Shown: positions 1,297 to 31,404, counted from the first letter of the stretch. The stretch: DNA of 32,000 bases from Phycisphaera mikurensis NBRC 102666 (GCF_000284115.1 NC_017080.1:1350001-1382000); one strand, 5' to 3'. Translations and numbers: made by a program. Notes: a model not told the origin generated them from the sequence alone.

Positions 1297-1342
1297 CCGC
1301 GGACCGTCACATCCTCAAGCGTTCCGGCGCTCCAGTGCGCGG
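1297..1342. repeat. 46-bp palindromic element, degenerate copy
   Basis: The left arm CCGCGGACCGT is exact at 1297-1307. At the expected 46-bp spacing the right arm is CCAGTGCGCGG, matching ACGGTCCGCGG at 8 of 11 positions. Confidence 0.45.
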
Positions 1343-1366
1343 CGCGGTCGTTTCTCGCGGGCCCCC

Positions 1367-1487
1367 GCGTGCGGCCTAACCAGGCGTTGCAGCGAACCGG
1401 CAGTGCTCGCAGGTTTACACTGCTCCTCCGGTTCTAGCTGCGTCGTCGCTCTGGCCGGCCGCTGAACGCTTCTTCGTTGGGCGGCCA
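1367..1487. repeat. MITE-like hairpin element, copy 3 (right terminus degenerate)
   Basis: GCGTGCGGCCTAACCAGGCGTTGCAGCGAACCGGCAGTG ... GGCCGGCCGCTGAACGCTTCTTCGTTGGGCGGCC. It is colinear with copies 1 and 2. Confidence 0.75.
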
Positions 1488-1675
1488 TTTCTCCAACTCG
1501 TTCCACAATCCGCCTGATCTCCTCCATCATCGCGACCGTGGCCTGCCTCGCGTTGCTGGCTTCGCTCTTGGTGCTCCTGCTTGCCCCACATCCGCTCATG
1601 GCACTGCCTGTCGTCATCTTCGGCGTCGGTGGGCTCGGTGCTGCGGCGGTGGCGTACTCCGCCAGTCGCGCTCCC

Positions 1676-1705
1676 GCCGCCTAACGCTTCTCCGTTGGGC
1701 CGCAC
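1676..1705. repeat. truncated or solo-end copy of the MITE-like element
   Basis: GCCGCCTAAC-GCTTCTCC-GTTGGGCCGCAC matches the last ~26 nt of the full element (AACGCTTCTTCGTTAGGCCGCAC). It can itself fold as a ~10-bp hairpin. Confidence 0.5.
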
Positions 1706-1750
1706 CCAAAGCGGGCTTGTGCTGCTGCGCACATCCGCCGTCTCGCCAAG

Positions 1751-1796
1751 CCGCGGACCGTCGCGGGTTTCGGCGTCCCGGCCCCACGGTCCGCGG
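1751..1796. repeat. 46-bp palindromic element (REP-like)
   Basis: CCGCGGACCGT (1751-1761), 24 nt, ACGGTCCGCGG (1786-1796): perfect 11-bp arms. The reverse-complemented loop resembles the loop of the 6550 copy (GGGA.GC.GAAACC.GC). Confidence 0.8.
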
Positions 1797-2147
1797 CGCG
1801 GCGGCCTCGTGCGGTGCAGCTCCGCCGCTCATCCGGTCGCCCTCCCCGCCGCCTTCCACGCTCGCCGCGTGTGGTCCTACCGGTCGTCGGCCGTGCCCGC
1901 GGCGACCTGCAACACCGCCGCCGCCTGCGGCTGGGTCCTCCCCACGTCTTCGACCGCCGTGGGCCCCCGCGACCGCGAAACCATGGATCCGCCGTCCGTG
2001 AGCCTCCGAGCCTCGGACATCCCGCTCCGGCGGCTGGGAAGTCGAGAAGCGTTGGGCTGGACGCGGCCCTTGAGGTCGTTGGGCGGTGCTCTCGGGACGT
2101 TCAGGACCGCGACGCGGCCGCGGGTGTTGCGAGGCCGGTCCGGTCGC

Positions 2148-3113
2148 TCAGGGCTTCGAGGCGTCGCTGCCTCGGCCCTCGATCACGCCGACGACGCCGT
2201 TCTCCTGCGAGGACCGGTGCAGCGCGCCCTGCTCGTGCATCGCGGGGAGATCGGTGTGCTGGCGCTCGAACTGCATCGCGGCCATCTTGTCGAAGAGGCT
2301 CGGCACCGCTTTGGCCAGTGCCGTGTTGAGGTGGGCCATCGCGCCGACCTTCTGGACGTCGGTGGGGGAGGTCGCGGCTTCGAGGATGGCGTGAGCGACC
2401 TTCGTCGCCTCGATCATCGGGGTCGGCAGCTTCGCCTCTTGGTCGCGGAGGTTCCGGGCGTGCTGGGGGTAGGGCGTGTCCACGGCCGTGGGCTGGACGA
2501 GCGTGACCTTCACGCTGGCCTTCTCCACCTCTTCGAGCTCGATGCGGAAGGCGTCGTTGATGCCCTTGACCGCGTGCTTGCTCGCGGAGTAGACGCCCTG
2601 CATCGGGATGGTCGCGTCGGAGACCTCGCTGCCGACGTTGATGAGGGCTCCGCCTTGCACCTTCAGGTGCGGGATCGCCGCCTGGCAGCCGTTGAAGACG
2701 CCCCAGACGTTGGTGTCGAAGAGGCGCCTGGCGTCGTCGAGCGGAGTCTCCTCCATCGTGCCGTAGATGCTGACGCCGGCGTTGTTGACCCAGGTGTCGA
2801 TGCGGCCGAAGCGGTCGATCGCGGTTTGCGCCGCGGCGTCGACCTGCGCCCGGTCGGCGACGTCGCAGGTGGCGGTGGCGACGCGGCCTAGCGCGTCGGC
2901 CTCGGCTTCGAGCCGGCGGGCGATCTCGGCGAGGGCGTCGCCGCTGCGGGCGACCAGCACGACCGAGGCCCCGGCGCGCACGGCGGCCTCCGCGGTGGCC
3001 AGGCCGATGCCGCTGGAGGCGCCGGTGACGACGAGGACCTGCTCTTGGAGCGGCTTCAAGAAGATCGACACGGCGGTTCCTTTCGGTGGGTGAAGAGGCG
3101 ATGCCCCCCCCAA
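2148..3113 (-). CDS. SDR-family (short-chain dehydrogenase/reductase) oxidoreductase
   Basis: It has the cofactor motif VTGASSGIG, NNAG, and the catalytic YSASK with a downstream extension. The track start at 3113 is a TTG. A GTG at 3071, preceded by AAAGGAACC, is the more likely start (VSIFLKPLQEQVLVVTGASSGIG). Confidence 0.9.
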   Translation of the reverse strand: MGGASPLHPPKGTAVSIFLKPLQEQVLVVTGASSGIGLATAEAAVRAGASVVLVARSGDALAEIARRLEAEADALGRVATATCDVADRAQVDAAAQTAIDRFGRIDTWVNNAGVSIYGTMEETPLDDARRLFDTNVWGVFNGCQAAIPHLKVQGGALINVGSEVSDATIPMQGVYSASKHAVKGINDAFRIELEEVEKASVKVTLVQPTAVDTPYPQHARNLRDQEAKLPTPMIEATKVAHAILEAATSPTDVQKVGAMAHLNTALAKAVPSLFDKMAAMQFERQHTDLPAMHEQGALHRSSQENGVVGVIEGRGSDASKP

Positions 3114-3235
3114 CGCTGCCCCGGATCCGTAGCGCCGCCCGGCCGCCGCGTCCAGCCCGGGACGCCGCGGATCCCGCGCTCCCGGGGGGCGGCGAACGGC
3201 CCCGTCGGCGGCGCGGTCGGTAGCCTCCGAGGCGG

Positions 3236-4636
3236 ATGAGCCCGCCGCCCAACGTCCTGCTGCTCTACGTCGACCAGCTGCGGTGGGACGCCCTGGGGTG
3301 CGCCGGCAACCCCGACGTGCTCACGCCCAACCTGGACGCGCTCGCGGCGCGGGGCACCCGCTTCACGCACCACTTCGTGCAGAATCCGGTGTGCATGCCC
3401 TCGCGGCTGTCGATGCTCACCGGCCGCTACCCCGCCAACCTCGGAATCACGGAGATGGCGGTGCCGGTCCCGCCGGGCACCGAGACGGTCGCGACGCGTT
3501 TCGCGGCGGCGGGGTACCGCACCGCCAACATCGGCAAGCTGCACTTCCTCCCGCACAGCAACCGGGACCACCGCGAGCCGCACCCGTCGTACGGCTTCCA
3601 CCACCTGGAGATCAGCGACGAGCCGGGCCCCTACGACGACGCCTACCGCGCCTTCGTGCGGCGTGTTGCACCAAAGCACCTGCCGGCGGTGTCGCTCCAC
3701 GTCGACCCGCCGGCGGCCCGCGTGCACCGGGAGGTGACCGGCCGGGACGACGGCATCCCGCACCCCAGAGCCTGGAGCCCTTGGACCACGGCGGCGGCGT
3801 CGGTCCCGTGGGACCTCACGCACACCGCCTTCGTCGGCCGCCGCGTGCGCGACTTCCTCGGGAACCAGGCGGCCGGCGGAACGCCCTTCTTCTGCGTCGC
3901 GGGCTTCTACAGCCCGCACTCGCCGCTGGTCGCGCCGCAGCGCTTCCTGGACCTCTACGACCCCAAGTCACTCACGCCGCTGCCCGAGCCCGACGACCGC
4001 GCCGGGCTCGACGACCCGGAGCACCGGCGGCAGGCGCTGCACGGCTACTACGCGATGATCAGCGAGGTCGATCACTGGGTCGGCGAGATCCTCAGCGAGC
4101 TGGCGCGGGCGGGCCACGCGGAGGACACCGTCGTCGCCTTCACGGGCGACCACGGCGAGTCCCTCGGCGACTTCGGCCGCTGGGGCAAGTCCTTCCCCGG
4201 GGAGGACTGCGTCTCGCGGGTGCCGCTGCTGGTGGCGAGCCCCGGGCAGCGGCCGGGTGTGTGCGACGCGCTCGTGGAGGCGGTCGACCTGGTGCCGACG
4301 CTGTGCGAGCTCTGCGGCGTGGTGCCCTCGCCGGACCTCGACGGGGCGAGCCTCCGGGCGGCGATCGACGCGCCGGCAGCTTTCGCGGGCAAGGGCGAGG
4401 TGCTGATGGAGGGCAGCCTGCGCAAGCCCGCGTGGCGCTCGATCCGCACGCGGACGCATCGCTACGTGCTCGACGCGGCGGGCGAGGAGATCGTCCACGA
4501 GCTGGCCGAGCCCTTCGGTGAGAGCCGCAACGCGGCGGGCGAGATCGACCCGGCGGTGCTTGCGGAGCTGCGGCACCGGCTGGCGACGCGTGTGATCGCG
4601 TCGCACCGCGGGAGCCCGGCGGTGTGGCCGTATTGA
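3236..4636 (+). CDS. S1-family sulfatase (formylglycine-dependent, Cys-type)
   Basis: 466 aa. The N-terminus reads NVLLLYVDQLRWDALGCAG, followed by the sulfatase signature CMPSRLSMLTGR (C-x-P-x-R). FTGDHGE and GKS motifs are present. No signal peptide is visible. Confidence 0.92.
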   Translation: MSPPPNVLLLYVDQLRWDALGCAGNPDVLTPNLDALAARGTRFTHHFVQNPVCMPSRLSMLTGRYPANLGITEMAVPVPPGTETVATRFAAAGYRTANIGKLHFLPHSNRDHREPHPSYGFHHLEISDEPGPYDDAYRAFVRRVAPKHLPAVSLHVDPPAARVHREVTGRDDGIPHPRAWSPWTTAAASVPWDLTHTAFVGRRVRDFLGNQAAGGTPFFCVAGFYSPHSPLVAPQRFLDLYDPKSLTPLPEPDDRAGLDDPEHRRQALHGYYAMISEVDHWVGEILSELARAGHAEDTVVAFTGDHGESLGDFGRWGKSFPGEDCVSRVPLLVASPGQRPGVCDALVEAVDLVPTLCELCGVVPSPDLDGASLRAAIDAPAAFAGKGEVLMEGSLRKPAWRSIRTRTHRYVLDAAGEEIVHELAEPFGESRNAAGEIDPAVLAELRHRLATRVIASHRGSPAVWPY

Positions 4637-4665
4637 GCCGCGGTCCGGCGGGTCGCGGTGGAGGT

Positions 4666-6509
4666 TCAGCCGCGGGCGATCTCGATTGCGGCGGCGTCGA
4701 AGGCGGCGGCGCCGATCGCGCCGCCGGCACGGCTGCCCCGGTGGACGGCGGCGACGGACCACCCGGCCGCGAGCCGCAGCGGGGCCGTCGCCTCGCCCGG
4801 GGCGGCGTCGACCGGGACCAGCACGCGGCGGTCGCCCGCGAGGGCGTGCTCGATCGAGCCCAGGCGCGGGTGACGGGCGGAGGCGACGCGGCTCGTGTCG
4901 CCAGCGTCGCCCAGCCGGTGCCGGGTGAGCACGAGGTTGCCGTCGGGCTCGGCGGCGAGCACCTCGGCGCGGTCGCCCGCGGCGGAGAGCTCCAGCTCCC
5001 AGCGGGCGGAGGAGGCGTGGGGAACGCCCCCCGGGCAACTCGGTGCGGAGGCCCCCGCCCACCGGCCGCGGGAACCGCCGGTGCAGGTGGACGCCGAAGA
5101 CGCGACCCAGGTCGTTCACGTGCGCGTCGTCGATGGCGACGAGCACGCGAACCCCCGCCCGCGCCCGCTGCTCCAGCTCGCGGGCGAGAGGCGCCCGCAT
5201 CGCGGTGAGGCCGGTGGCCGAGGGCACGATCCGCAGCGGCAGGTCCGGGATTGGGCCGCTGCTCGCGGCGTAGACGACGTCGAGCCCCGCCTGCCGGGCG
5301 AGCACCCATGCATCGCAGGCGGCGGCCCGGGGATCTTGCTCCGGCTTAAGGGTCACCGCCGCTTCGGCTCGCCGCGCCGGAAGCCGCCCGAAGGGCATCC
5401 CCGCCGCCGCCTCCGCCACCTCGCCCAGCGCCGCCAGGGCCGGCTTCTCCGAGCCGTCCCCGCGGACCAGGCCCAGCTTCCGTTCATCCGCCACCCACCC
5501 GCACGGCGGGTGCGTAAGCGCGTCCTGGTCGGAGGCGTACCACCACATCGCGGCCCGGCCGCCGTGCTGCCAGAGGCTCCAGGCCGACGCGCGGAGGAAG
5601 TCGGCCGAGCGTTCGTCATCGCACACGGTCGGGCCCATGCTGCCGATCTCCTCGGCGGAGCACGGTCTGCCGGAGAGGTCGGCGTGCAGCCGGGTCTCGC
5701 AGGCGGCGTGGGCGATCGGCCGCAGCGTGTCGGTGGGGTCGTTCCCGGCGTGGTCCACCCAGAAGGCGTGCGGGTGCGTGGTCAAGACGTCGATCCGCTC
5801 GCCCTGGTCGTCGATCCGCCAGCTGGCCAGGCCGGCCGCGTCGTCGCGGTCCACCTCCACCCTCAGCGTGTGCACGCCCAACACCAGCGGGCGGGTGGGA
5901 TCGGCCGCCTTGCTCGTCCCGGCGAGCAGGGCGGTCCACGCGTAGGCGGCTTCCCGCGAGAGGGTCTTGCCGTGCTCGTTGCACTCGTTGCCCAGGTCCC
6001 GGGCGGCGATGGCCCCGGCGTGCTTCGTGCGCCCGATGATCCCGCGGCACAGGCGGACCTGCCGCTGCATCGACAGCAGGCTGGTGATCGGGCCGAGGTG
6101 CGCCAGGCCCGGCGGGGCGAAGCGTCGGCCGCTCACGTGCCCGGTCACCAGGCCGACGGAGAGCTTCAGCCCCCGCTCGCCGGCGAGCCCGCAGAAGCGG
6201 TCGAAGCGCCGAAGCATCGCCGGGTCGAGCTCCTCGCGGTTGGGCAGGGGCGAGCCGTCGGCGATCGTGTCGCCGAAGGGCTCGCCGCGGCCGCTGTCGA
6301 GCCGATGGATCGGCTGGAAGTCCGACCACAGCGGAAACACGCGCAGCAGCGTGACGCTCGCGGCCGCGAGCGTTTGTGGATCGGCCGCGACCACGTCTTC
6401 GCGCCGGTCGCTCAACACGGCCTCTCCCGCGGGCGACGCCCAGTGGTCCGCGCACCGCCAGCCCGCCGGCGGGCAGCAGCGTCTCGACGGCTTGCTCGAT
6501 CTCGTCCAT
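4666..6509 (-). pseudogene. clan GH-A glycoside hydrolase (GH5/GH42-like architecture), reading frame interrupted
   Basis: The middle frame (track ORF 3968..6418) reads RVFPLWSDFQP, DLGNECNEHG (NE acid/base-type motif) and SAEEIGSMG. It turns into Arg/Pro-rich nonsense after ...GLRTELPGG. A different frame (track ORF 4666..4962, open upstream) continues sensibly (VPHASSARWELELSAAGDRAEVLAAEPDGNLVLTRHRLGD...) and stops 30 nt from the convergent sulfatase. The switch maps to CCCCCCGGG at 5027-5035. An ATG at 6509 lies in a third frame. Confidence 0.6.
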
Positions 6510-6549
6510 CCCGAATGGGATGCCGCGTCCGCGTGAACGCCGCAGACGC

Positions 6550-6595
6550 CCGCGGACCGTGGGCGTCGGGAGGCGAAACCGCCGACGGTCCGCGG
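6550..6595. repeat. 46-bp palindromic element (REP-like)
   Basis: CCGCGGACCGT-GGGCGTCGGGAGGCGAAACCGCCG-ACGGTCCGCGG with perfect arms. It lies just downstream of the FG-GAP gene stop (6619) and upstream of the GH start. Confidence 0.8.
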
Positions 6596-6618
6596 GATCG
6601 GGTCCTTGGGCTCCGCGG

Positions 6619-9489
6619 TCAGTCCGCGCTCAGGTCGAGCTCGTCACGCCGGATCCCGTAGACGAAGCCCGGCCCGTCGCCCATGTACAGGAGGTCCCAG
6701 CGGCCGTCGCCGTCGGCGTCGCGGGGTGCCACGGCGAAGCCGTGGGTCTCCACGCGGGTGACCCCGCCGTCCGCCCAGCGGATCCGGCGGGCAGGCTCGA
6801 ACACGGGCTCGGCGGCGGTGCCGGCGTTGCGGATCCAGAAGGCGGAGCTGCTCTTGAGTCCCTCGGTGGTCGCCTGGTCCACCGGGTCGGGGTTGTAGAC
6901 CTGCACGTTCTTGGCCACGGTGCCGAAGAGCACGTCCCACACGCCGTCGTCGTCCATGTCGGTGACGGCGAAGGCGGTCCGCCCGGACATGCCCGCCGAG
7001 CCGGAGGTGCGGACGGGGCGGCCGTCCTGGTAGTTCATCGGGATCTCCCGCTCGATCTCGGTGGAGCCGGTGCGTGTCGGCACGCCGGCGACCAGGTTCT
7101 GCTCGGCGTTCAGGTAGAGCAGCACCGGCCGGTCGTCGCCGGCCACGCCGCAGGCGCCGGGCACGCCGGCGGGGCGGTGACGCCACGACACCGGCAGCTT
7201 CGCGTCGGAGCCGGCGCGGGTGAAAACGGCCTCGGAGGTGACGGCGGGGTCGCCGGGGTCGGTCCGCTTCAGCAGCCGGAAGGTCGCGGTGTTGTCGTTG
7301 CCGATGAGGTCCAGCGTGCCGTCGGCGTCCCAGTCGAACAGCTCGGGCTGCGTGTAGCCCCAGCCTCTCTCCTGCGGGCCTTGGAGGTTCTGCTCGCCGA
7401 CGTAGCGGCGGTCGTGGCCGGAGGAGTCCTTCAGCGTGCGGGCGCCTCGGAAGACCATCGGATCGTCGGTGCCCGGGAACAGCAGGTAGTAGCCGGCGCC
7501 GTCGCCGGTGACCAGGTCCGGGGTGCCGTCGCCGTCCCAGTCGCCGACGGCGGGGATGGCGAGCGTCGCCGCGCCCACCACGCCGCCGACGTTCTCGAGG
7601 ACGCCGAGCCGGCGGAAGGCCCCGACCTCTTCGCCGCCGAGGGCGACGGCTCGTCCCGCCGAGCCCGAGCCCACCACGACCTCCTTGGTGCCGTCGCCGT
7701 CGAGGTCCTGCACACCGACGATGTAGGGGATGATGATGTCGCGGGCGTCCGCCTCGCTCGCCAGAAGATTCTGCGCTGCGCCCAGGTGCAGCGAGCCCTC
7801 CGGCGTCCCGGTGAGCACGGGCAGCGCGAGCGCCTCGGACACCGCGGAGAAGAGCAGAACGTGGCGGGTGCCGTCGCGCTCGATCATCGCCGGCACCATC
7901 CGCTGGCTGAAGTTGCGCCACTGCACCGGGTAGTCGTCGCGGCCGAGGTAGACCGGCTGCCGCGGACCGAGCACCAGATCGCCGTTGGAGGCACGCGATC
8001 CGCGGGCCCACTGCAGGGCGTAGTTGACGCGGGTGCCCAGCCACTGGCCGTCGACGCCGTAGCCGCGGAAGCCGGGGGTGTTCTGCGTGTCGGTGTGCGG
8101 CCCGACGTTGGTCTGCGGCTGGATCGTCCACGGCGGCGAGCCGTCGGGCCAGTACATCCGCTTCTGGGCGCGGTCGACCTGGCGGCCGATCAGCAGGTCG
8201 GTCACGCCGTCGCCGTCGGCGTCGCCGAGGAAGAAGTCGCTGTGCAGCGCAAGGTCGCGGAGCGCTGCAGCGCGCTCGCCGGGCTCCACCCGCTCGGCCG
8301 GCCCGGCGGTGCGGGTCTCGTCGCCGCCGGCGGCCGGCGCGGCGAGCCCGATCGGCCGCGGCTTGGCGAACATCGTCCGCTCGCCCGTGGCCGAGACCTC
8401 GCCGACGTGCTCGAGCCGCTGGAGGTGGTAGAGGTCGAAGCCGCCTGCCTCACGCGGCACCGCCTGGTACCGGCCGTTCGCGAAGCCGTGGTCGCTGTGG
8501 CCGCCGTCGTAAAGGGGGAGGCCCGAGGTCGGCGCGGGCGAGGCCTCCGCCCGCGTCGCCGCGTCCACCGGCCGGTACGCCATCGAAGCCGCGGGGATCC
8601 ACTCCGAGCTTCCGAGCACGAGCAGCTCCGGCGCCTCGCCCTCCCCGCGGGGGATCAGCGAGAGGCCCGCCCACTGCACCGGCAGCGGCTGCGTCGCGTC
8701 GGGAGCGAGGCGGACGTGCGTGAAGTCGCGGTAGGGGTGCGTCTGCGCCGGCGGCACGTCCTCGTAGGCGATGCCCGCGAAGAGGCCGTTCCAGTCGGTG
8801 GCGATGCGCGTCTCGCCGAAGGTCGCGGCGAAGCCGGCGGCGTTGCCGGTGTCGATGCGGACGGTGTTCGATGCCCCGTCGTAGTCCGCCTCGATGACGC
8901 CGTCGGGGCGGCTCGGCACGGACGCCGGCGCCGCATTGCCCGCCGGCCAGGCCCAGACCTCCATGCGGTCGAGGCCTTCGGCCGAGGGGCGGGTGACCAG
9001 CCGGGCGGCGATGGTGATCGGTCCGGTTGCCGAGACCCCCGCCTCGCCGAGCTTCACGTCCGCCCGCTCCTCGCCGAGGCTCACCAGCAGCGTGTTGCCG
9101 CTGGAGAAGCCCACCTTCAGCGGCCGGTTGTTGACGGAGGCGTCCTTGGTGAAGAGCCCGATCGACGCGTGGTCCGAGCCGCCGCCCAGGCCCGAGCGGC
9201 CGACGGTGGTGCGGAAGAAGTACTCGCCAGCTCGCTCGAAGTCGACCTTCACCGCGACGTTGCGGGCCGCCCAGCCGGCGCCGGTGAGGCCGCCGCCGCC
9301 CGCGTAGGCCATGCCCTTGCCGCCCCAGGCCCCGAGGAAGCCGGGGCTCGGCAGCTCGGCCTTCAGCGACCCCGCGTTCCCGACCATCGGGTCCGCGGCG
9401 AGCGCCTCGGCCGCCGCGGGGCCGGCGGAGGCGAACGCGGCGGCAAAAACGGCAGCCGTGGGGAGCGAGCGGGCGGTGGAGCGGGTCAT
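6619..9489 (-). CDS. secreted FG-GAP/VCBS-repeat beta-propeller protein with an N-terminal jelly-roll-like domain
   Basis: 956 aa with a signal peptide (MTRSTARSLPTAAVFAAAFASAGPAAAEA). Ca-binding FG-GAP-type repeats recur: DADGDGVTDLL, DLDGDGTKEVV, GDWDGDGTPDLV, FDWDADGTLDLI, TDMDDDGVWDVL, RDADGDGRWDLL. Confidence 0.85.
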   Translation of the reverse strand: MTRSTARSLPTAAVFAAAFASAGPAAAEALAADPMVGNAGSLKAELPSPGFLGAWGGKGMAYAGGGGLTGAGWAARNVAVKVDFERAGEYFFRTTVGRSGLGGGSDHASIGLFTKDASVNNRPLKVGFSSGNTLLVSLGEERADVKLGEAGVSATGPITIAARLVTRPSAEGLDRMEVWAWPAGNAAPASVPSRPDGVIEADYDGASNTVRIDTGNAAGFAATFGETRIATDWNGLFAGIAYEDVPPAQTHPYRDFTHVRLAPDATQPLPVQWAGLSLIPRGEGEAPELLVLGSSEWIPAASMAYRPVDAATRAEASPAPTSGLPLYDGGHSDHGFANGRYQAVPREAGGFDLYHLQRLEHVGEVSATGERTMFAKPRPIGLAAPAAGGDETRTAGPAERVEPGERAAALRDLALHSDFFLGDADGDGVTDLLIGRQVDRAQKRMYWPDGSPPWTIQPQTNVGPHTDTQNTPGFRGYGVDGQWLGTRVNYALQWARGSRASNGDLVLGPRQPVYLGRDDYPVQWRNFSQRMVPAMIERDGTRHVLLFSAVSEALALPVLTGTPEGSLHLGAAQNLLASEADARDIIIPYIVGVQDLDGDGTKEVVVGSGSAGRAVALGGEEVGAFRRLGVLENVGGVVGAATLAIPAVGDWDGDGTPDLVTGDGAGYYLLFPGTDDPMVFRGARTLKDSSGHDRRYVGEQNLQGPQERGWGYTQPELFDWDADGTLDLIGNDNTATFRLLKRTDPGDPAVTSEAVFTRAGSDAKLPVSWRHRPAGVPGACGVAGDDRPVLLYLNAEQNLVAGVPTRTGSTEIEREIPMNYQDGRPVRTSGSAGMSGRTAFAVTDMDDDGVWDVLFGTVAKNVQVYNPDPVDQATTEGLKSSSAFWIRNAGTAAEPVFEPARRIRWADGGVTRVETHGFAVAPRDADGDGRWDLLYMGDGPGFVYGIRRDELDLSAD

Positions 9490-9524
9490 GGCGGGGGCGT
9501 GAGGCGAGAGGAGGGCCTGGGAGC

Positions 9525-9538
9525 TGTAGAATACTACA
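9525..9538. promoter_or_regulatory. AT-rich near-palindromic box TGTAGAATACTACA
   Basis: It has 5-bp perfect arms (TGTAG/CTACA) and lies 36 nt upstream of the FG-GAP ATG. It shares GAATACTACA with the box at 19009. On the minus strand it reads TGTAGTATTC, containing a TAGTAT -10-like hexamer. Confidence 0.4.
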
Positions 9539-9603
9539 TCGCTTCGAGGGGTCGAGGAAGCGGCAACCTGTCCGACGGCCGGCGGGACGGGGGCAAGCGT
9601 TTC

Positions 9604-12105: not shown

Positions 12106-12915
12106 ATGCAGCGGACCCGGGCCGACGCGAAGCTCCCCAACTTGGCCCGAGGCAGCGGCTCCGCCCCCGAGGCGGGCGACGGCTCGGGCCTGCCGCTCAA
12201 GCCGACGCTGTCCAGCCGGGCGTACCGGCAGATCCGCCAGATGCTGCTCGACGGCACCCTCGCCGAGGGCATGCTCGTCAGCGAGCAGTCGCTCGCGGCG
12301 AAGCTGGGCATCAGCCGCACGCCGGTGCGCGAGGCGATCCGTCGGCTGCGGGCCGAGCGGATCGTCGAGCAGGTCCACCGCGTGGGCACCACCGTGCGGA
12401 AGCCCAGCCCCGAAGAACTCGTCGAGCTCTACGACCTGCGGGAGGCGCTGGAGGTGTTCGCCGCGGGCCGGGCCGCGAGCGGCGCCGCGAGCGAGAAGCA
12501 GCTCGACCGCCTCGGCCGCTACTGCGACGCGATGATGATCCTCGCCCGCCGCCTCCGCGCCGCGGACCGCGGGCGGAAAGACGCCGAAGCCGCCACGGTC
12601 CGCGGCCAGTTCTTCGCCGCCGACATGGCCTTCCACACCGAGCTGATGGGCGTCACCGGCAACGCGGCGATGCTCAACCTGATCCGCGAGACCCGCGTCT
12701 TCACGCAGATCTTCACGCACCGCCGCCACCCCTTCATCGACGACCTCACGATCGCCCACGTCTACCGGCACCACCGGCGGATCCTAAACGCGATCCGCCA
12801 CGGCAACGCCGCCGAAGCCGGCCGCCGCATGGCCGATCACATCCGCGCGAGCAAGGAGGGCATGCTGCCCTTCCTGCGCGAGCGCGAGGCGGCTGGGGCG
12901 GTTGAAGTCCGCTGA
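12106..12915 (+). CDS. GntR-family transcriptional regulator, FadR/FCD subfamily
   Basis: A winged-HTH is present: SEQSLAAKLGISRTPVREAIRRLRAERIVEQVHRVGTTV. It is followed by an all-helical FCD-type C-terminal domain (LYDLREALEVFAA... HRRILNAIRHGNAAEA). The track start at 12034 is a TTG that overlaps the upstream gene, so ATG 12106 is preferred. Confidence 0.88.
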   Translation: MQRTRADAKLPNLARGSGSAPEAGDGSGLPLKPTLSSRAYRQIRQMLLDGTLAEGMLVSEQSLAAKLGISRTPVREAIRRLRAERIVEQVHRVGTTVRKPSPEELVELYDLREALEVFAAGRAASGAASEKQLDRLGRYCDAMMILARRLRAADRGRKDAEAATVRGQFFAADMAFHTELMGVTGNAAMLNLIRETRVFTQIFTHRRHPFIDDLTIAHVYRHHRRILNAIRHGNAAEAGRRMADHIRASKEGMLPFLREREAAGAVEVR

Positions 12916-15440: not shown

Positions 15441-15447
15441 GGGATCC

Positions 15448-18063
15448 TCAGGAATCCGCGGACCGGACGCTCATCGGGTCCGCGGTGGCGGCGGTGCGCG
15501 GCTCGGTCGCCTCCCGGCGCCCGCGGCCGGAGAAGGCGTTGGCGCTGAAGAGGCGCGGCCCGGCCGCGGGCACGCCGGCTCGCTCGCGGGCGAGGGGAAA
15601 GCGGAAGAGCGCGGTTTCGCCGGGGAGCAGCGTGCGGGTCTGCTCGTCGGCGGGCGCGTCGGCGAGGGACGGTCCGGGGTCGACGACGGCGTCGCGGAGC
15701 AGCGTGTGCGCGGTGACGGTCACGGCGAGCGTGCCGGCGGAGCGCTCGGCGGCGAGGTCGAAGCGCGGCTCTGGCAGGTGCATCGCGTGGTCGGGCGCGG
15801 GGGCCCAGACGCGGCGGCCAAGCGTCGGGTCGTCGGCGACGACGAGGCCGCCGCTCTCCTGCGCGGCGGCGGTCAGCTCCGCGGGCACCGCAGCGCGGAG
15901 CAGGATCTCCGCCGTGGCCGCGGGGTCGGCTCGCAGCGGGACGTCGGCCGAAGCGAGCTCCTCGCCCGCGGCGTCGACGGCGCGGAGACGCACGGGCACC
16001 CCGCGGCTCCAGCCGGCTGGAGCGAAGCGGACGAACGCGAGGTTCGCGGGGTCGTTTTCCGCCGCGAGCAATGCGGCCGCGTGATCGCCCATCGACCGCC
16101 GGCTCCCGTACCAGGCGAGCTTCCGGCGGCCGAAGAAGTCGATCACCGACCAGCTGACCGCGGGCCAGCTGTCCTGCAGCTGCCAGACGAGCGTCCCCGA
16201 GCAGCGTGGTTGTAGCGAGCGGTACCAGCCGGCGCCCAGCTCCACCGCCCGGCTCTGCATCAGCTGCGTGGCGTACACCCAGGCGTCGAGCGCGAGGGGC
16301 GGATCGTCCGGGCCCGGCACGGCGGCCCGGCCGAAGACCTCGTCCAGCCGGGCCTCCATCTTCGCCCGCCCGCGGGTCGCCATGAGGAAGCCCCAGGCCG
16401 CCTCGGAGCGGTCGGCCTCGGGCACGCCCGGCGTCGCCCACCGCAGCGTCTGGGCGTGCGCCGCGCCGCAGAAGCCGAACTCCGCGGCGAAGCGCGGGCG
16501 GGTCCGCAGGTACGCCTCGCCGGGCTCGCGGTTCCACGCGTCCCAGGGGTGCTGCGGGCCGTGGTTCTCGTCGTCGGCGGGGGAGCCGAGCGAACGGCCG
16601 CTGGGGCTGTTGATGACGTACGCGCTGCCCGGTGAGCGCTCGGCGACGGCCTCGGGCAGCAGCTCGCCGTAGAAGCCCTCGCCCCAGCCGGTGTCGCCGA
16701 CGGCCTCGGCCCAGCCCGGCTGCGAGCGGTGGAACCACAGGCACTCGTTGCCGCCGCACCACAGCGCGAGGCTCGGCCGCCACGCGAGGCGGTCGGCGAG
16801 GTGCGTGGCTTCCTCCCGCACCTCCCCGGCCAGCTGCGCCTCGTCGTACATCGCGCAGGCGAAGGGGAAGTCCTGCCAGACGAGGATCCCCTCCTCGTCG
16901 CAGCGGTCGAAGAAGGCGTCGCTCTCGGCCACGCCGCCGCCCCAGACCCGGATCGCGTTCGCGCCCGCGGCGAGTGCCTCGTCGAGGCGCGCCTGCGTGG
17001 TGGCCGGATCCACCCGATCGAGCAGCGTGTCGCTGGGGATCCAGTTGAAGCCGCGGCAGAAGACCTCGCGGCCGTTGACCCTCACCGCGAAGCGGGTGCC
17101 CGCGGCGGGTTCCGCGGGGTCGTCGGGGCTTCGGTCGATCTCGACGGTGCGGAGGCCGACGCGGCGGGTCACGGTTCCGTCGGCCGTCCGGGCTCGGAGC
17201 GTGGCGGTGAGTTCGTACAGCGGCTGTTCCCCGCAGCCCCGCGGCCACCACCACGCCGGCTCGCGCACGCGCAGCGTGGCCGTGGCGACGCCGTCGTCAC
17301 CGAGCGTCGCCTCGCCCGCCGCGACCACGCCACGGGTCGGATCGCTCAGCCGCAGCCGCACACGCTCTCCCGCCGCGTTGGATCCGCGGACCGTGGCGGA
17401 AACGACCGCGTTTCGCCCACGGTCCGCGGATTCCGTGGAGACCGCGAGCGCATCGATCCGGGCGGCGTCGCGCGGCCGCAGCGTCACCGCACCCGACAGC
17501 CCGCACGTGTCCAGCGGCGGAGCCCAATCCCAGCCGAAGCCACAGGCCATCTTGCGGACGCCGTTGTACGGCGTGATGCCCGGCATCGCGATGGGGTGCG
17601 GGCCCTCGGCGGCGGCAACCGCGGAGCCGGTCGGCGGAGCGAAGCGGACCTCCAGCGTGTTGCGCCGCCGGAGCCTCTCCCCGAGATCGAAAGCGTGCGG
17701 CCGGAAGCCGTTCTCGCAGCGGCCGAGCGACCCGCCGTTGAGCAGGACCTCCGCGGGCCCGTCGACGCCGGCAAGAACCAGCTCCAGGGCTGGGCCGTCG
17801 GGGTCGGCCGCGAAGCGTCGCGTCCACGACCAGCCGCAACGGCCGATCCAGCGGAGCTTCTCCCACGCTCCTCCGCGATAGGGCTCGTCGATGAGTTCCG
17901 CGGCGAGCAGCGCTGTGTGGACGCTGGCCGGCGCGTCGGTGGTCACCTCCGCCGAGCGGACCTCGGGCGGGGCGGCATCGCCGGAGCAACGCAGAGCCCA
18001 ACCGGCGGACAGATCGGCCGGCGCGGCGGCGGCATCCACGGACGGAAGAGCCGCCACCGTCAC
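15448..18063 (-). CDS. GH2-family glycoside hydrolase, beta-mannosidase-like
   Basis: Family motifs are present: VNGREVFCRGFNWIPSD, IRVWGGGVAESDAFFDRCDEEGILVWQDFPFACAMY, LWCGGNEC (acid/base) and FAAEFGF (nucleophile). The preferred start is GTG 18063, which overlaps the aldolase stop as GTGA. The track ORF extends to 18183 inside the aldolase gene. No signal peptide is visible. Confidence 0.9.
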   Translation of the reverse strand: MTVAALPSVDAAAAPADLSAGWALRCSGDAAPPEVRSAEVTTDAPASVHTALLAAELIDEPYRGGAWEKLRWIGRCGWSWTRRFAADPDGPALELVLAGVDGPAEVLLNGGSLGRCENGFRPHAFDLGERLRRRNTLEVRFAPPTGSAVAAAEGPHPIAMPGITPYNGVRKMACGFGWDWAPPLDTCGLSGAVTLRPRDAARIDALAVSTESADRGRNAVVSATVRGSNAAGERVRLRLSDPTRGVVAAGEATLGDDGVATATLRVREPAWWWPRGCGEQPLYELTATLRARTADGTVTRRVGLRTVEIDRSPDDPAEPAAGTRFAVRVNGREVFCRGFNWIPSDTLLDRVDPATTQARLDEALAAGANAIRVWGGGVAESDAFFDRCDEEGILVWQDFPFACAMYDEAQLAGEVREEATHLADRLAWRPSLALWCGGNECLWFHRSQPGWAEAVGDTGWGEGFYGELLPEAVAERSPGSAYVINSPSGRSLGSPADDENHGPQHPWDAWNREPGEAYLRTRPRFAAEFGFCGAAHAQTLRWATPGVPEADRSEAAWGFLMATRGRAKMEARLDEVFGRAAVPGPDDPPLALDAWVYATQLMQSRAVELGAGWYRSLQPRCSGTLVWQLQDSWPAVSWSVIDFFGRRKLAWYGSRRSMGDHAAALLAAENDPANLAFVRFAPAGWSRGVPVRLRAVDAAGEELASADVPLRADPAATAEILLRAAVPAELTAAAQESGGLVVADDPTLGRRVWAPAPDHAMHLPEPRFDLAAERSAGTLAVTVTAHTLLRDAVVDPGPSLADAPADEQTRTLLPGETALFRFPLARERAGVPAAGPRLFSANAFSGRGRREATEPRTAATADPMSVRSADS
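15456..15485. repeat. short variant of the palindromic element
   Basis: CCGCGGACC-N12-GGTCCGCGG with a GGAAT flank. It lies inside the last codons of GH2 (...ADPMSVRSADS*). Confidence 0.5.
17384..17429. repeat. 46-bp palindromic element embedded in the GH2 coding sequence
   Basis: GGAT-CCGCGGACCGT-N24-ACGGTCCGCGG-ATTCC with perfect arms and exactly 46 bp. It is translated in frame as ...STESADRGRNAVVSATVRGSN... Confidence 0.75.
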
Positions 18064-21573: not shown

Positions 21574-21619
21574 CCGCGGACCGTCGAGCGAATCCAGCTC
21601 AAAGCCCCAGCGTCCGCGG
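21574..21619. repeat. 46-bp palindromic element, slightly degenerate
   Basis: CCGCGGACCGT is exact at 21574-21584. The right arm is AGCGTCCGCGG (9 of 11) at the exact 46-bp spacing. It lies ~135 nt downstream of the sulfatase stop (21755). Confidence 0.6.
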
Positions 21620-25339: not shown

Positions 25340-25385
25340 CCGCGGACCGTGGGCGTTTTCAGCGGTTCGGGGCGACGGTCCGCGG
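25340..25385. repeat. 46-bp palindromic element (REP-like)
   Basis: CCGCGGACCGT-GGGCGTTTTCAGCGGTTCGGGGCG-ACGGTCCGCGG-ATCC with perfect arms. It lies 28 nt upstream of the dapL start. Confidence 0.8.
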
Positions 25386-25412
25386 ATCCGAAGCCGTATC
25401 CTCTCCGCCCGC

Positions 25413-29279: not shown

Positions 29280-29298
29280 GGCGGCGGCAGAGCCGCCC
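29279..29298 (+). terminator. GC hairpin directly after the nuoI stop (no U-tract)
   Basis: GGGCGGC-ggcaga-GCCGCCC begins within the TAG stop codon. There is a 7-bp stem but no T-run, so terminator function is uncertain. Confidence 0.3.
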
Positions 29299-29315
29299 AT
29301 GCCGCTGCGCGGCAG

Positions 29316-29387: not shown

Positions 29388-29459
29388 TCCATGGCTCCCG
29401 CGTCGCCGATCCGCCGCGATCGCGGCGATGCCGTCCGCCCCGCAGGCGATCTCGCCGCG

Positions 29460-29493
<34 letters not shown>

Positions 29494-29509
29494 TCGCTTG
29501 CTCTCCGCC

Positions 29510-29515
29510 TAAACT
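29510..29515 (+). promoter_or_regulatory. candidate -10 hexamer TAAACT for the flavodoxin gene
   Basis: It is the only TANNNT element between the CT tract and ATG 29558. A 17-bp spacer would put the -35 at 29487-29492, overlapping the end of the CT tract. Confidence 0.3.
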
Positions 29516-29557
29516 CAGCGTCCGGGACCCCGCACGCACCCAGCCCCCACAGAACCC

Positions 29558-30079: not shown

Positions 30080-30102
30080 TCCGGGCGGGAAGCGCCGGCT
30101 GA

Positions 30103-30120
30103 CGGGGGCGGCTGCCCCCG
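30103..30120 (+). terminator. GC hairpin downstream of the flavodoxin gene (weak T-tail)
   Basis: CGGGGGC-ggct-GCCCCCG lies 24 nt after the stop and is followed by cgTTgaagcTTT. Confidence 0.3.
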
Positions 30121-30322
30121 CGTTGAAGCTTTGGGAGCGTCGATCGCACCGCTGGAGCCTGCCCCCGCGGCGGGCTGTCCGTGCGCTCGCCGCTGCCGCT
30201 CCGAGGCGCTGGTTCCGGCGATCACTGGGGGGGAAATCCGCAAAAGGTTGCGAGGGTCGTTCAGTCTGTGCCGAAGAAGGGCGATAGACGGGCGAACCTC
30301 CTTCCCTCCTCCAAGGAACCTC

Positions 30323-30544
30323 ATGCGTCTTCCCCACGACCCGATCCGCGACAACCTCCACGACCTTGTTCGCGGGCTCGACGGCCGCGAGAAAGCGATC
30401 GTCATGCTGTACTACGCGGACGAGCTCCAGCCCGAGGAGGTCAGTGCCGTGATGGAGTTGCCGGTGACGGTGATCACCGCGACGCTGAGGTCGTTCCGCG
30501 CCTCCGCCGCGACCATCCTCGCTCCGCGGCTCCTCGCCGCCTGA
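30323..30544 (+). CDS. stand-alone sigma-70 region 4 (HTH) domain protein, 73 aa
   Basis: ATG 30323 is preceded by AAGGAA. LDGREKAIVMLYYADELQPEEVSAVMELPVTVITATLRSFRA follows the ECF region-4.2 pattern (L..re..v..l.y...l...EiA..l..s.gTV...l.rar). I saw no region-2-like sequence in the frames I translated upstream. Confidence 0.65.
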   Translation: MRLPHDPIRDNLHDLVRGLDGREKAIVMLYYADELQPEEVSAVMELPVTVITATLRSFRASAATILAPRLLAA

Positions 30545-30597
30545 GCGGGATCGCGTCGCCTCGGTGCGCCGCGTGCTCGGCACGCGGCGCCGGCGGA

Positions 30598-31311
30598 TCA
30601 GCGGGGCGCAAGGCTTCGTCCGCCGACCGCTGCGCTCACGTCCGCCACGCGGCCGGGGCCCACGGCGTACACCCGGTCGCCCGGCCGCGGGCGGATCGGG
30701 TGTACGCCGGTGAAGGCCCCGAAGGCGGGCAGCAGGGCGGTGCTCCCGCGGAACAGGAAGCAGGGCATCCGCATGCGGTCCCGGCCGGTTCTGATCGACA
30801 CCGCCGGGTGCAGGTGCCCGCAGAAGGTCGGCGTCGCTCCGTCGCCGCAGGGCTCCGCGAGGCCGGCCGCGGGCTCGTGCGCGAAGGCGACCCCGCCGTC
30901 CCCGATCGGGCCGTTGACGCACCGGATCCGCAGCGAAGCGGGCGGGTCGCCGGCGTGGCGGTCGTGGTTCCCGCGGACGTTCTCGATCCGCAGCTCCGGC
31001 CAGGCGGCCCGGAAGGCCTCGAGGCGGCCGAGCACGGCGTCGGTCACCCCCTGGCGGTTGTGGAAGAGGTCGCCGAGGACGACCAGCCGCCTCGCCCCGA
31101 CAGCGCGGAGCAGCGCGTCGAGGCGGCCGAGCGTGTCGCCGTCGGCGCCGTCCGGCACCGGGATGCCGGAGGCGCGGAAGTGATCGGACTTGCCGAGGTG
31201 CAGGTCCGTCACCAGCACCGTGGCGTCGCGGACGCGTACCAGCGCCCGCTCGGCACGGACCTCCCAATCGTCGCCGCCGAAGCGGGTGTGCAGCGTCATC
31301 GCGAGGATCAT
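30598..31311 (-). CDS. pdeM: ligase-associated DNA damage response endonuclease PdeM (metallophosphoesterase)
   Basis: LVTDLHLGKSDHFRASGIPVP, LVVLGDLFH, VRGNHDRH, FAHEP, CGHLHPAV, MPCFLF...LLPAFGAFTG: the PdeM family pattern. Confidence 0.85.
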   Translation of the reverse strand: MILAMTLHTRFGGDDWEVRAERALVRVRDATVLVTDLHLGKSDHFRASGIPVPDGADGDTLGRLDALLRAVGARRLVVLGDLFHNRQGVTDAVLGRLEAFRAAWPELRIENVRGNHDRHAGDPPASLRIRCVNGPIGDGGVAFAHEPAAGLAEPCGDGATPTFCGHLHPAVSIRTGRDRMRMPCFLFRGSTALLPAFGAFTGVHPIRPRPGDRVYAVGPGRVADVSAAVGGRSLAPR

Positions 31312-31358
31312 GGGGATGGGACTCCTTTCCGAGGGAAGCGGCTCTCCTTCCGTGGAAG

Positions 31359-31404
31359 CCGCGGACCGTGAGCGTTCAGGCGGGAATCAGCCGGCGGTCC
31401 GCGG
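31359..31404. repeat. 46-bp palindromic element overlapping the mqn-like gene stop
   Basis: CCGCGGACCGT-N25-CGGTCCGCGG-ATCC, 46 bp in total. It encodes the last residues (...SLRGSADRRLIPA*) and spans the TGA at 31376-31378. Confidence 0.75.

Follow-up and report, generated by a model that had tools for sequence, protein, structure and literature searches.

Introduction

REP-RAYT systems were reportedly described by Nunvar in 2010 and by Bertels and Rainey in 2011. The uptake signals of Pasteurellaceae (USS) and Neisseriaceae (DUS) are single 9-12-mers that occur genome-wide, lie within genes in preferred frames and are common to related species; they are abundant as singletons, show many one-off variants and form inverted pairs at gene ends. 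HIP1, the cyanobacterial highly iterated palindrome GCGATCGC, is a single 8-bp palindrome with a high density in and between genes, where it is formed in place and retained at orthologous positions. GTAG-tagged REP doublets, or REPINs, belong to the REP-RAYT systems (Di Nocera 2013, PMC3733652). The REP unit is a stem-loop with a stem of 5-13 bp and a loop of 2-20 nt (Table 1 of PMC3733652), and genes of Opitutus terrae and Rickettsia are known to contain REPs and REP dimers (PMC3733652).

Here we describe a palindromic motif in a window of 32,000 nucleotides of Phycisphaera mikurensis (contig JACHEL010000003.1) and compare it with these systems.

A 46-bp motif with fixed spacing

The motif is a high-copy, genus-level element of P. 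mikurensis and its close relatives. It consists of two invariant, inverted 11-nt arms, CCGCGGACCGT-N24-ACGGTCCGCGG, 46 bp in total, with the arm core CCGCGGAC...GTCCGCGG and half-site centres 35 bp apart. It recurs roughly every 3-4 kb, both between genes and within them.

The window contains 10 copies (Table 1), of which four are perfect, two have one mismatch, one has two and three have three. The perfect copies were located by an exact pattern search of the window, and none is expected by chance, as judged from 100 dinucleotide-preserving shuffles of the window. The palindromic family proposed in an earlier sequence-only reading of this DNA is thus real. The eight copies tallied there, seven full-length and one short, are all members, but the tally was incomplete, the copies at 12560 and 7960 having been overlooked. 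The right-arm degeneracy that it gave for the copies at 1297, 21574 (9/11) and 31359 (10/11) was confirmed. The element at 15456, earlier taken for a 30-bp variant, has the full 46 bp and belongs to the family like any other; its orthologue in a related species (L039) has one mismatch. The supposed collapsed remnant at 4638-4658 is not a member, because no second arm accompanies it at any spacing, even with four mismatches allowed.

Table 1. Copies of the 46-bp element and attC-like sites in the window
Feature	Position	Strand	Arms or boxes	Context
46-bp element	1297..1342		3 mismatches, right arm 8/11	last gene cassette of attC array
46-bp element	1751..1796		perfect	
46-bp element	6550..6595		perfect	intergenic, 23 nt past FG-GAP stop, convergent gene ends
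46-bp element	7960..8005		3 mismatches	inside FG-GAP gene (6619-9489, minus)
46-bp element	12560..12605		1 mismatch	within GntR/FCD regulator gene (12106-12915, plus), in frame
46-bp element	15456..15501		3 mismatches	last codons of GH2
46-bp element	17384..17429		perfect	in frame inside GH2 beta-mannosidase-like gene (15448-18039, minus)
46-bp element	21574..21619		2 mismatches	between two same-strand genes
46-bp element	25340..25385		perfect	199 nt after sigma-70 gene, 27 nt before aminotransferase start
46-bp element	31359..31404		1 mismatch	overlaps stop of radical-SAM CofH/MqnC-like gene (31376-32569, minus)
attC-like recombination site	188..297	+	R'' GCCTAAC ... R' GTTAGGC	
attC-like site	462..570	+		
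attC-like site, last of array	1374..1482	+	R' GTTGGGC	

Phycisphaera DNA totalling 135 kb contained 43 N24 copies with up to three mismatches, a number far above chance. Copies with 0, 1, 2, 3 and 4 mismatches numbered 18, 13, 5, 7 and 1, respectively; this spectrum is bimodal, and the spacing-24 scan of the same DNA showed no excess at 4-6 mismatches. Other spacings from 5 to 60 gave no match with up to two mismatches in the 135 kb, except for spacing-17 by-products, which are shadows of true N24 copies. Within the window, 18 arm matches have at most one mismatch, and 15 of them belong to N24 pairs. Single arms are almost always partnered, and the pair is therefore the unit. Metagenomes yielded 16 perfect N24 copies, from 14 of the 18 matching sequences, and a search of 185,579 species representatives for the N24 motif gave zero matches. 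A true repeat family, as opposed to hairpins evolved independently, is supported, as the sequence-only reading had argued, and the conserved arms are indicative of a recognition site.

Like USS and DUS, the motif is genome-wide, has preferred reading frames in genes and is shared by related species, but its arms are almost never single and its spacing is exact. An uptake-signal class was rejected on the pairing of the arm matches and the missing excess at 4-6 mismatches. The motif resembles HIP1 as a lineage-specific palindrome that is dense in and between genes, retained orthologously and of in-place origin; unlike HIP1, it has 22 specified bases split by a 24-nt spacer, a far lower density and a strong intergenic excess.

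Conservation of the arms and folding

Mismatches are almost confined to the innermost arm positions 9-11. The variant arm pairs number 38, with 31 broken, six G.T and one compensated; covariation is absent, and pairing is therefore not the conserved feature. The conserved features are the arm sequence and the spacing. The loops had been described as related and partly self-complementary, so that the whole unit could fold into a hairpin of about 20 bp. Their relatedness holds, although it is weak (about 8 bits over 24 positions), with T patches common at positions 7-8 and 17-18 and a weak spacer consensus common to many intergenic copies. The self-complementarity does not hold in general, since symmetric loop pairs amount to 3.4 of 10 compared with 2.8 in shuffles, and the 20-bp hairpin is therefore limited to a few copies, such as that at 17384. 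Folding as single-stranded DNA gave about -17 to -28 kcal/mol for the window copies, and 46-mers folded with RNA parameters gave -14 to -44 kcal/mol.

A function at the RNA level, with the stem as an mRNA stabiliser, a processing site or a protein-binding hairpin as proposed for REPs, would agree with a G+C-rich 11-bp stem that is stable by folding, with palindromic arms that yield the same stem from either transcribed strand, and with several copies that are intercistronic or at gene 3' ends. We nevertheless consider it improbable, because the broken pairs stay uncompensated, a fixed 24-nt loop length with free sequence lacks an obvious RNA rationale, the spacer orientation is not consistently related to the transcribed direction and one copy lies between divergent genes. 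The Rfam check proposed with the first description also brought no family for the element: covariance models at gathering score had no match in the window, and at E<=1 none fell on any of the 12 copies in positions 1-10000 of locus L018.

The flanks are variable or show AT on one side, and 25 of 60 copies are directly bordered by AT at one end. Conserved inverted termini around a less conserved interior recall a MITE, whose DDE transposase would bind the 11-bp arms as terminal inverted repeats. This is very improbable, considering that 46 bp is far under known MITE sizes, that target-site duplications are absent (AT is on both sides in one of 60 copies), that the length is fixed around an unrelated interior and that the in-gene copies formed without a change in length.

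Relation to GTAG REP doublets

Both arms are identical in 11 of 11 positions to the inner arms of GTAG REP doublets at seven loci of other Planctomycetota, the hosts being Alienimonas, Phycisphaerales MAGs and a Planctomycetota MAG. These doublets have the layout GTAGGGTCCGC-x-CCGCGGACCGT-N19-29-ACGGTCCGCGG-x-GCGGACCCTAC, and the REP likeness seen in the sequence-only reading thus has a real basis. On the one hand, the two are alike as short high-copy palindromes with two inverted units and a less conserved spacer, and each has intergenic as well as intragenic copies; in the manner of REPINs, the Phycisphaera motif occurs as inverted-unit pairs in high copy, all 43 in the 135 kb being N24. On the other hand, the Phycisphaera copies are without the GTAG tag and without a self-folding REP unit on either side, and no outer arm of the GTAGGGTCCGC type was found beside them, even at two mismatches. 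Each arm corresponds to no more than the 3' half of the relatives' REP hairpin (GGTCCGC-TCC-GCGGACC), and pairing in Phycisphaera is possible only between the arms, across the 24-nt loop. The spacer is fixed at 24, whereas that of the relatives is variable, and the in-gene copies are not insertions.

The motif could be a mobile element of the REPIN type, with a Y1 (RAYT) or similar HUH transposase that recognises the 46-nt single-stranded hairpin and copies it around the genome; its conservation would then reflect copying from master sequences and the loss of damaged copies. The arms common with the GTAG doublets, a very high information content with a quasi-species-like copy spectrum, and the spacer consensus of many intergenic copies would be consistent with this, as would AT at one end, which is expected of target-adjacent insertion without duplication. 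The intragenic REPs and REP dimers of Opitutus terrae and Rickettsia offer a precedent (PMC3733652). However, the tag used by RAYTs and the individual REP hairpins are missing, the in-gene copies show no length gain of 46-48 bp and retain native spacer residues, orthologous sites are stable across species at ~76-88% nucleotide identity, and presence/absence polymorphism was not seen. In addition, no transposase gene was found in about 63 kb of the 3.8-Mb P. mikurensis genome, and the ORFs between paired GTAG doublets at L001 and L012 do not have a Y1_Tnp domain. We therefore regard such mobility as unlikely, although not remote.

Position relative to genes

Outside the array there are about 19 non-redundant sites, of which about eight are intergenic, three overlap gene ends and six to eight are intragenic. 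Intergenic sites are in strong excess relative to coding density, but the genic minority is large, with about one third of the non-redundant sites inside well-supported genes (GntR, GH2, halogenase-like, FG-GAP). In co-directional gene strings, several intergenic copies precede the next start codon by 7-27 nt, and one copy lies between divergently transcribed genes. The description of the copies as sitting just 3' of genes is accordingly not supported, and the copy at 17384, which had been placed 3' of GH2, is in frame within it. The 21574 copy is 135 nt past a sulfatase stop and 61 nt ahead of the start of a LamG-domain gene, and the intergenic region of the 25340 copy also has a perfect copy in L039. 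The 15456 copy is 8 nt from the GH2 gene end (stop included), and the sulfatase start (15440) follows it closely.

The role first proposed was that of intrinsic (bidirectional) transcription terminators. A stable hairpin does follow some stop codons directly, namely at 6550, 31359 and L042:2662 (a second P. mikurensis contig). However, none of 60 copies has a run of at least four T within 12 nt of either end, copies lie inside genes and before downstream starts, and termination needs no invariant stem sequence. By position and by the missing U-tract the terminator reading is largely refuted, and we now find it scarcely credible.

Copies within genes

At the in-gene sites the arms are read as protein. 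The reading frame is identical, AADR...TVRG, in all four independent in-gene sites (at most two mismatches, well-supported genes), and the peptides are AADRGRKDAEAATVRG for the 12560 copy in the GntR/FCD gene and SADRGRNAVVSATVRG for the 17384 copy in GH2. The spacer of the 7960 copy encodes SNGDLVLG, a native-looking FG-GAP motif, and one arm of the 31359 copy supplies the C-terminal ...GSADRRLIPA of the radical-SAM CofH/MqnC-like protein. Copies are retained at orthologous sites in five genomes (GntR), three (GH2-internal), four (GH2-end) and three (halogenase-like). For the GntR and GH2-internal sites, arm identity is 94-96% and that of the flanks 75-79%. Divergence at third codon positions amounts to 8.9% in the arms, 33% in the flanks and 46% in the spacer (pairwise counts; Fisher p = 2e-8).

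Compared with motif-free homologues, the genes contain no inserted block. The GH2 with the 17384 copy is equal in length to nine motif-free homologues, the GntR proteins with the motif are longer by only 3-4 residues and not by 16, and in the halogenase-like gene the outgroups have AAREAGAEVIEGCAVRG where Phycisphaera has AADGGAEVRRGVTVRG, without an indel. At the same GH2 place in a syntenic outgroup locus (L045), nothing similar to an arm was found. These comparisons indicate that in-gene copies were made by substitution and not by insertion, the in-place evidence coming from three genes and the clearest case, the halogenase-like one, having one to two arm mismatches. Given this origin, the motif behaves like a selected protein recognition site and not like a terminator. 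Rickettsia palindromic elements (RPE) and the REP dimers of Opitutus terrae are likewise palindromes read through in frame (PMC3733652); by their description, RPEs and intragenic REPs are inserted and lengthen the protein by 20-50 residues, whereas the Phycisphaera motif overlays native residues.

Copies that arise where they stand in native coding DNA and override a conserved protein motif would also be expected from molecular drive, as would genic and intergenic occurrence with a single tolerated frame and the persistence of copies at orthologous sites. Biased DNA uptake, biased short-patch repair or quasi-palindrome template switching would convert near-matches to the consensus wherever tolerated, genes included, and the copies would have no function at each locus. 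We give this a low probability, considering that unpartnered single arms hardly occur, that the continuum at 4-6 mismatches that additive uptake or repair bias would give is missing, and that a 46-bp bipartite palindrome is unlike any known uptake signal.

A putative recognition site

We tentatively prefer, at somewhat less than even confidence, the reading that the motif is a headless relative of the REP doublets, kept as the putative recognition site of a two-fold symmetric protein. Such a sequence-specific protein would read both half-sites, most likely on duplex DNA, with the spacer sequence free except for two T-rich patches about 10 nt apart. By descent the motif would be related to GTAG REPINs, which hold the same arms within the outer GTAGGGTCCGC hairpin module, and purifying selection would hold the sites at their present density in intergenic and intragenic DNA. 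The intergenic copies were probably spread by copying, because many have a common weak spacer consensus and some ride on duplicated integron cassettes. In-gene copies would have formed where they stand, by substitution in native coding DNA, and would survive in the single frame giving tolerable peptides (A/S-A-D-R ... T-V-R-G). As for what binding would achieve, chromosome-wide organisation or a REP-type interaction with DNA-processing enzymes is our guess.

Several features fit a recognition site less well. An information content of ~40 bits far exceeds the need of ~1000 sites per genome and is more typical of copied (mobile) DNA, and the common consensus of many intergenic spacers indicates descent by copying. 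The bimodal mismatch spectrum equally fits an all-or-none templated creation, and a bipartite spacing of 35 bp between centres is unusual among known DNA-binding proteins. The substrate may alternatively be a hairpin with an 11-bp stem and a 24-nt loop, in single-stranded DNA or RNA.

The motif could also be a chromosome-wide signal of a new kind, written into genes and intergenic DNA by selection or by a conversion or repair activity and read by a putative two-fold symmetric protein conserved in Planctomycetota. The GTAG REP doublets would then be mobile carriers of a host site and not its ancestors. We hold this to be doubtful; if it is true, the motif is written even at the cost of conserved protein residues.

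The attC array

The first 1.5 kb of the window are the tail of an attC cassette array, which has 13 attC-like sites, starts 3.8 kb upstream of the window and neighbours the copies at 1297 and 1751. Integron attC sites and the 46-bp element are both imperfect palindromes with conserved ends and a variable centre. However, the element is without RYYYAAC/GTTRRRY boxes and extrahelical bases, and its copies are dispersed over ordinary operons and genes. Its identity as an attC was rejected, as it has no R''/R' boxes or L''/L' stem, both of which are present in the neighbouring repeats of ~110 bp. The 1297 copy lies 31 nt upstream of the last attC-like site, and the right flank of the 1751 copy, cgcggtcgt, is common to copies in the upstream 336-bp cassettes.

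Distribution of the 46-bp element

The window contains a real repeat family of palindromic 46-bp elements, and the sequence-only reading that described it can be both confirmed and extended. Four perfect copies of CCGCGGACCGT-N24-ACGGTCCGCGG were found by pattern search, where none is expected in shuffled sequences, and ten elements are present once mismatches are allowed. The starts listed in that reading do hold elements, but those at 7960 and 12560 had been overlooked. Also, the supposed 30-bp variant at 15456 is an ordinary 46-bp member (one mismatch in the orthologous copy of a related genome), and the suggested remnant at 4638 falls outside the family. The window, which corresponds to positions 7299-39298 of contig JACHEL010000003.1 (assembly GCA_014207395.1), has a G+C content of about 72% and carries a polysaccharide-utilisation-type gene set (five sulfatases, a GH2 enzyme, an FG-GAP protein, an SSF transporter, DHDPS, and a GntR/FCD regulator), together with genes for SOD, a sigma-70 factor, an aminotransferase, a ferredoxin, and a flavodoxin.

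Positions of the elements, attC-like sites and GTAG REP doublets, and retention of copies at orthologous sites (L numbers in the table denote loci in other Planctomycetota)
Feature	Sequence	Position	Mismatches	Genomes retaining the copy
46-bp element	window	start 1297	3	
46-bp element	window	start 1751	0	
46-bp element	window	start 6550	0	
46-bp element	window	start 7960	3	
46-bp element	window	start 12560	1	
46-bp element	window	start 15456	3	
46-bp element	window	start 17384	0	
46-bp element	window	start 21574	2	
46-bp element	window	start 25340	0	
46-bp element	window	start 31359	1	
GntR site				5
GH2 internal site				3
GH2 3' end site				4
Halogenase-like gene site				3
attC-like site	window	188-297		
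attC-like site	window	462-570		
attC-like site, last of array	window	1374-1482		
GTAG REP doublet	L001	4492-4562		
GTAG REP doublet	L001	5264-5334		
GTAG REP doublet	L003	665-735		
GTAG REP doublet	L003	1061-1129		
GTAG REP doublet	L012	5534-5604		
GTAG REP doublets	L002, L005, L011, L013			

Family statistics were taken over 135 kb of Phycisphaera DNA: the window, 16 kb flanking it, another P. mikurensis contig, and five contigs of related species. This DNA held 18, 13, 5, 7, and 1 N24 copies with 0, 1, 2, 3, and 4 mismatches, respectively, and at all other spacings from 5 to 60 there was nothing with two mismatches or fewer, apart from spacing-17 shadows of true copies. The 46-bp family is genuine, exact in length, and without a tail of decayed copies. 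Gaps between elements span 0.4 kb to over 9.9 kb, and therefore the elements have no regular spacing along the chromosome.

Orthologues of GH2, GntR, and the halogenase-like gene, about 80-87% identical to the versions of P. mikurensis or of contig L040, led to the five related contigs; each contig has three to five elements, about one per 3-4 kb. A more distant syntenic locus (L045; 49% GH2 identity, 64% G+C) has no element. Across one genome per species from 185,579 species, a set that evidently does not cover the source species, the arm pair occurred 13 times and never with N24. In metagenomes, N24 copies were present in 14 of 18 matching loci, mostly from one marine assembly, with 16 perfect copies in total. 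Viral contigs held no exact N24 copy, and an Rfam search, which the sequence-only reading had suggested, matched nothing.

Three further loci (L015, L017, and L019) match the window at 100% identity or repeat P. mikurensis DNA already in the data set, and are uninformative on polymorphism. A presence/absence test of the SASA/sulfatase intergenic region between L038 and L041 was invalid, because the flanking proteins (47% and 30% identical) are non-orthologous. On related contig L044, two copies 378 bp apart (5117-5162 and 5495-5540) share the same flanks (agcg...cgcttggttg) and differ little in their spacers, indicating a local segmental duplication that carried the element. Gene order around GntR varies among the five relatives. 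On related contig L039, the interval from the ferredoxin to the aminotransferase gene contains an insertion of two genes, Transposase_mut (IS256-type) and Fic (1557-2774); in the window, a methyltransferase gene and hypothetical genes occupy this place.

Constraint on the arms

Over 60 copies, mismatches are almost confined to arm positions 9-11, the innermost, and the outer eight arm bases, CCGCGGAC/GTCCGCGG, are nearly invariant. Among 38 variant arm pairs, 31 are broken, six are G.T, and one is compensated. Accordingly, selection targets individual arm sequence and inter-arm distance, and not base pairing. The self-complementarity previously noted for the loops is also not general, since spacers average 3.4 of 10 symmetric pairs versus 2.8 in shuffles. 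An RNA hairpin as the functional form, which the palindromic arms would allow, is in our view improbable.

The arms are also constrained as DNA beyond what the protein requires. At the GntR and GH2-internal sites the arms are 94-96% identical, versus 75-79% in the flanking coding sequence. Pairwise, third codon positions diverge by 8.9% in the arms, by 33% over 20 flanking codons to either side, and by 46% within the spacer; the contrast gives p = 2e-8 by Fisher's test, with pairwise counts that are not independent. The low third-codon divergence in the arms, together with the rare codon CGT retained in three of five GntR orthologues, points to this additional constraint.

Most spacers match a weak oriented consensus, CGSCGTTTYCRGCCGYTT.G.CCC, which owes its information to two T patches at positions 7-8 and 17-18, separated by about 10 nt. 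These patches (e.g., window 25356-25359 and 25366-25367) are about one helical turn apart in G+C-rich surroundings, and in most copies their arrangement is direct rather than inverted. The dinucleotide AT, which is rare at 72% G+C, stands directly next to the element on one side in 25 of 60 copies and on both sides in a single copy; examples of the AT flanks are at window 17382-17431, 25386-25387, and 31405-31406. The one-sided AT shows no obvious dependence on spacer orientation. Two explanations were rejected. A restriction-modification explanation was considered because the arms contain CCGCGG and CGGWCCG, and was dropped since neither is avoided elsewhere in the window (114 observed versus 75 expected and 29 versus 25, respectively). 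An invertible spacer was discarded on the collinear, unflipped spacers of orthologous GntR and GH2 sites.

Placement relative to genes

There are about 19 non-redundant sites outside the cassette array: about eight are intergenic, three lie over last codons or the stop, and six to eight are within genes. Some intergenic copies lie 7, 13, and 27 nt 5' of the next start codon in co-directional gene strings, and another separates two genes with divergent transcription. A T-run follows none of the copies. This placement before starts, between divergent genes, and within genes does not fit terminators, and the terminator role suggested by the sequence-only reading was not borne out; we regard an intrinsic terminator as very improbable.

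The arms form the C-terminal residues or stop region of the GH2 and CofH/MqnC-like genes (window 15440-15450 and 31311-31404). GH2 therefore ends in a C-terminal tail of about 20-25 residues in P. mikurensis and its closest relative, and this tail is missing from the other aligned homologues. For annotation, it matters that the motif overlaps stop codons and lengthens ORFs.

Four in-gene sites with two mismatches or fewer lie in well-supported genes (GntR, GH2, metallophosphatase, and halogenase-like). All four are independent and share one frame, xCC GCG GAC CGT - 8 codons - ACG GTC CGC GGx, translated as A/S-A-D-R ... T-V-R-G. The in-gene copies formed in place on native sequence and not by insertion. 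In the halogenase-like flavoprotein, 13 sequences align without gaps, with AAREAGAEVIEGCAVRG in the outgroups and AADGGAEVRRGVTVRG in the four Phycisphaera proteins, and the alignment with the solved structure 8zop is likewise gapless. Its spacer residues (GAEV..G) are native, and change is confined to residues under the arms, which include a conserved motif. In GH2, the 16 motif-encoded residues form a loop and beta-strand of an Ig-like domain; the length there equals that of nine motif-free homologues, and the outgroup GH2 DNA at the corresponding place has no likeness to the arms. The GntR region is three to four residues longer, not 16, than in homologues with 35-46% identity. In the FG-GAP copy, which has three mismatches, the spacer encodes SNGDLVLG, a native-looking FG-GAP motif. 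Considering this formation in place, spread as a MITE, which would insert the repeat as a unit, is hardly credible. Molecular drive through uptake or biased repair would be another source of such copies, to which we give little weight.

Relation to REP doublets and possible function

Seven of the 13 matches in other genomes are 65-75-bp palindromes, GTAGGGTCCGC-x-CCGCGGACCGT-N19-29-ACGGTCCGCGG-x-GCGGACCCTAC. They occur in Alienimonas, Phycisphaerales MAGs, and the Planctomycetota MAG MFD09495.bin.2.75, with more than one at several loci. They are GTAG-tagged REP doublets, in which each half consists of GTAG and a 7-bp stem (GGTCCGC/GCGGACC) closed by a 3-nt loop. Earlier records place GTAG REPs in Planctomycetes, and both intragenic REPs and REP dimers in Opitutus terrae and Rickettsia (PMC3733652).

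On the one hand, the Phycisphaera arms equal the inner arms of these doublets. On the other hand, the Phycisphaera element retains just the inner 11 nt of each half, and no copy has a GTAG module next to it. The element therefore lies outside the structural definition of a GTAG REP, although the relationship is still clear, and the REP analogy of the sequence-only reading holds for the arms and not for the GTAG REP structure. We consider the 46-bp element a headless relative of REP doublets. Three copies in the DNA upstream of the window lie in another repeat, about 330-490 bp apart (L018 1286-1381, 1777-1872, and 2106-2201; window -5479, -4988, and -4659). In these copies the right arm continues into AGCGGAC, the opening bases of the outer REP module of other planctomycetes, which may be a vestige of the longer REP form.

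We tentatively favour, with less than even confidence, the reading of the 46-bp element as a putative bipartite protein recognition site, in which two half-sites at a fixed distance would be kept by the host through purifying selection for a putative protein reader. This reading is based on the fixed spacing with a free spacer, the invariant half-sites without covariation, the synonymous constraint, the absent decayed copies, and the formation in place within genes. The serious rival is a mobile REPIN-like mechanism, which we consider rather unlikely. On the side of this rival, about 40 bits are conserved, far above the need of about 1000 sites; many intergenic copies have a common spacer consensus; and the mismatch spectrum is all-or-none. 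These features point to templated copying. ORFs between paired GTAG doublets of L001 and L012 gave no Pfam match, no Y1 transposase domain, and no RAYT. The Phycisphaera element has the arms of bona fide GTAG REP doublets but has lost the parts that a RAYT would use.

REP-type repeats are commonly regarded as extragenic hairpins, spread by insertion, that serve as terminators or mRNA stabilisers. What stands out here is an element imposed on coding sequence and constrained at synonymous sites. If 22 bases and an exact 24-nt spacing are under purifying selection, synonymous sites included, this would be a departure from usual REPs; native coding sequence has been overwritten without insertion, in one case altering a conserved Rossmann-fold motif. 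As a protein recognition site, the element would allow the host-conserved part, two half-sites at a fixed distance, to be told apart from transposase requirements, and the 46-mer would be a concrete bait for a candidate reader protein of REP-like DNA in Planctomycetota, whose chromosome biology is, to our knowledge, poorly known. The element density could also confound assembly and repeat-based typing.

The attC-like array

Thirteen attC-like sites, 274-912 bp apart, lie at L018 2937-8255 (window -3828 to 1490); the array starts 3.8 kb upstream of the window, whose first 1.5 kb is the array end. The sites have R'' (GCCTAAC) and R' (GTTAGGC/GTTGGGC) boxes and an attC-like fold of R stem, internal loop, L stem with single-base bulges, and variable tip. 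Folding z-scores were -4.5 to -5.4 in three of four strands and -2.8 in the fourth, from the last array site. The array is either an integron cassette array or an attC cluster that lacks an integrase. No ORF of L018 900-8800 has a recombinase domain and the 7 kb to the left contain no integrase, and at this locus the array therefore looks like the latter.

ORF-less 336-bp cassettes, 81-94% identical, form tandem pairs or triplets at L018 2706-3731, 4162-4947, and 5749-6536. Within each cassette is a single 46-bp element whose flanks are conserved (gcacgt...cgcggtcgtccgctgcgggcc). Duplicated cassettes thus account for the copies at 1297 and 1751 and for a further ten immediately upstream of the window, and the dense elements at the array represent cassette duplication and not independent placement. 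Recurrent 104-aa ORFs in these cassettes are Arg/Ser/Pro-rich, lack a Pfam match, and are not called as genes, and were rejected as spurious. A cassette BLAST against plasmids gave no match, and the integron cassette of the window flank is also present on two metagenome contigs, L021 and L025 (about 88% identity).

The product of another array cassette (L018 6542-6931; window -223 to 166) is a small protein containing two zinc fingers of the C2H2 type (PF13894, E = 3e-7), an unusual feature in bacteria. In the adjoining cassette, the opposite strand carries a gene for an FMN reductase (window 649-1212).
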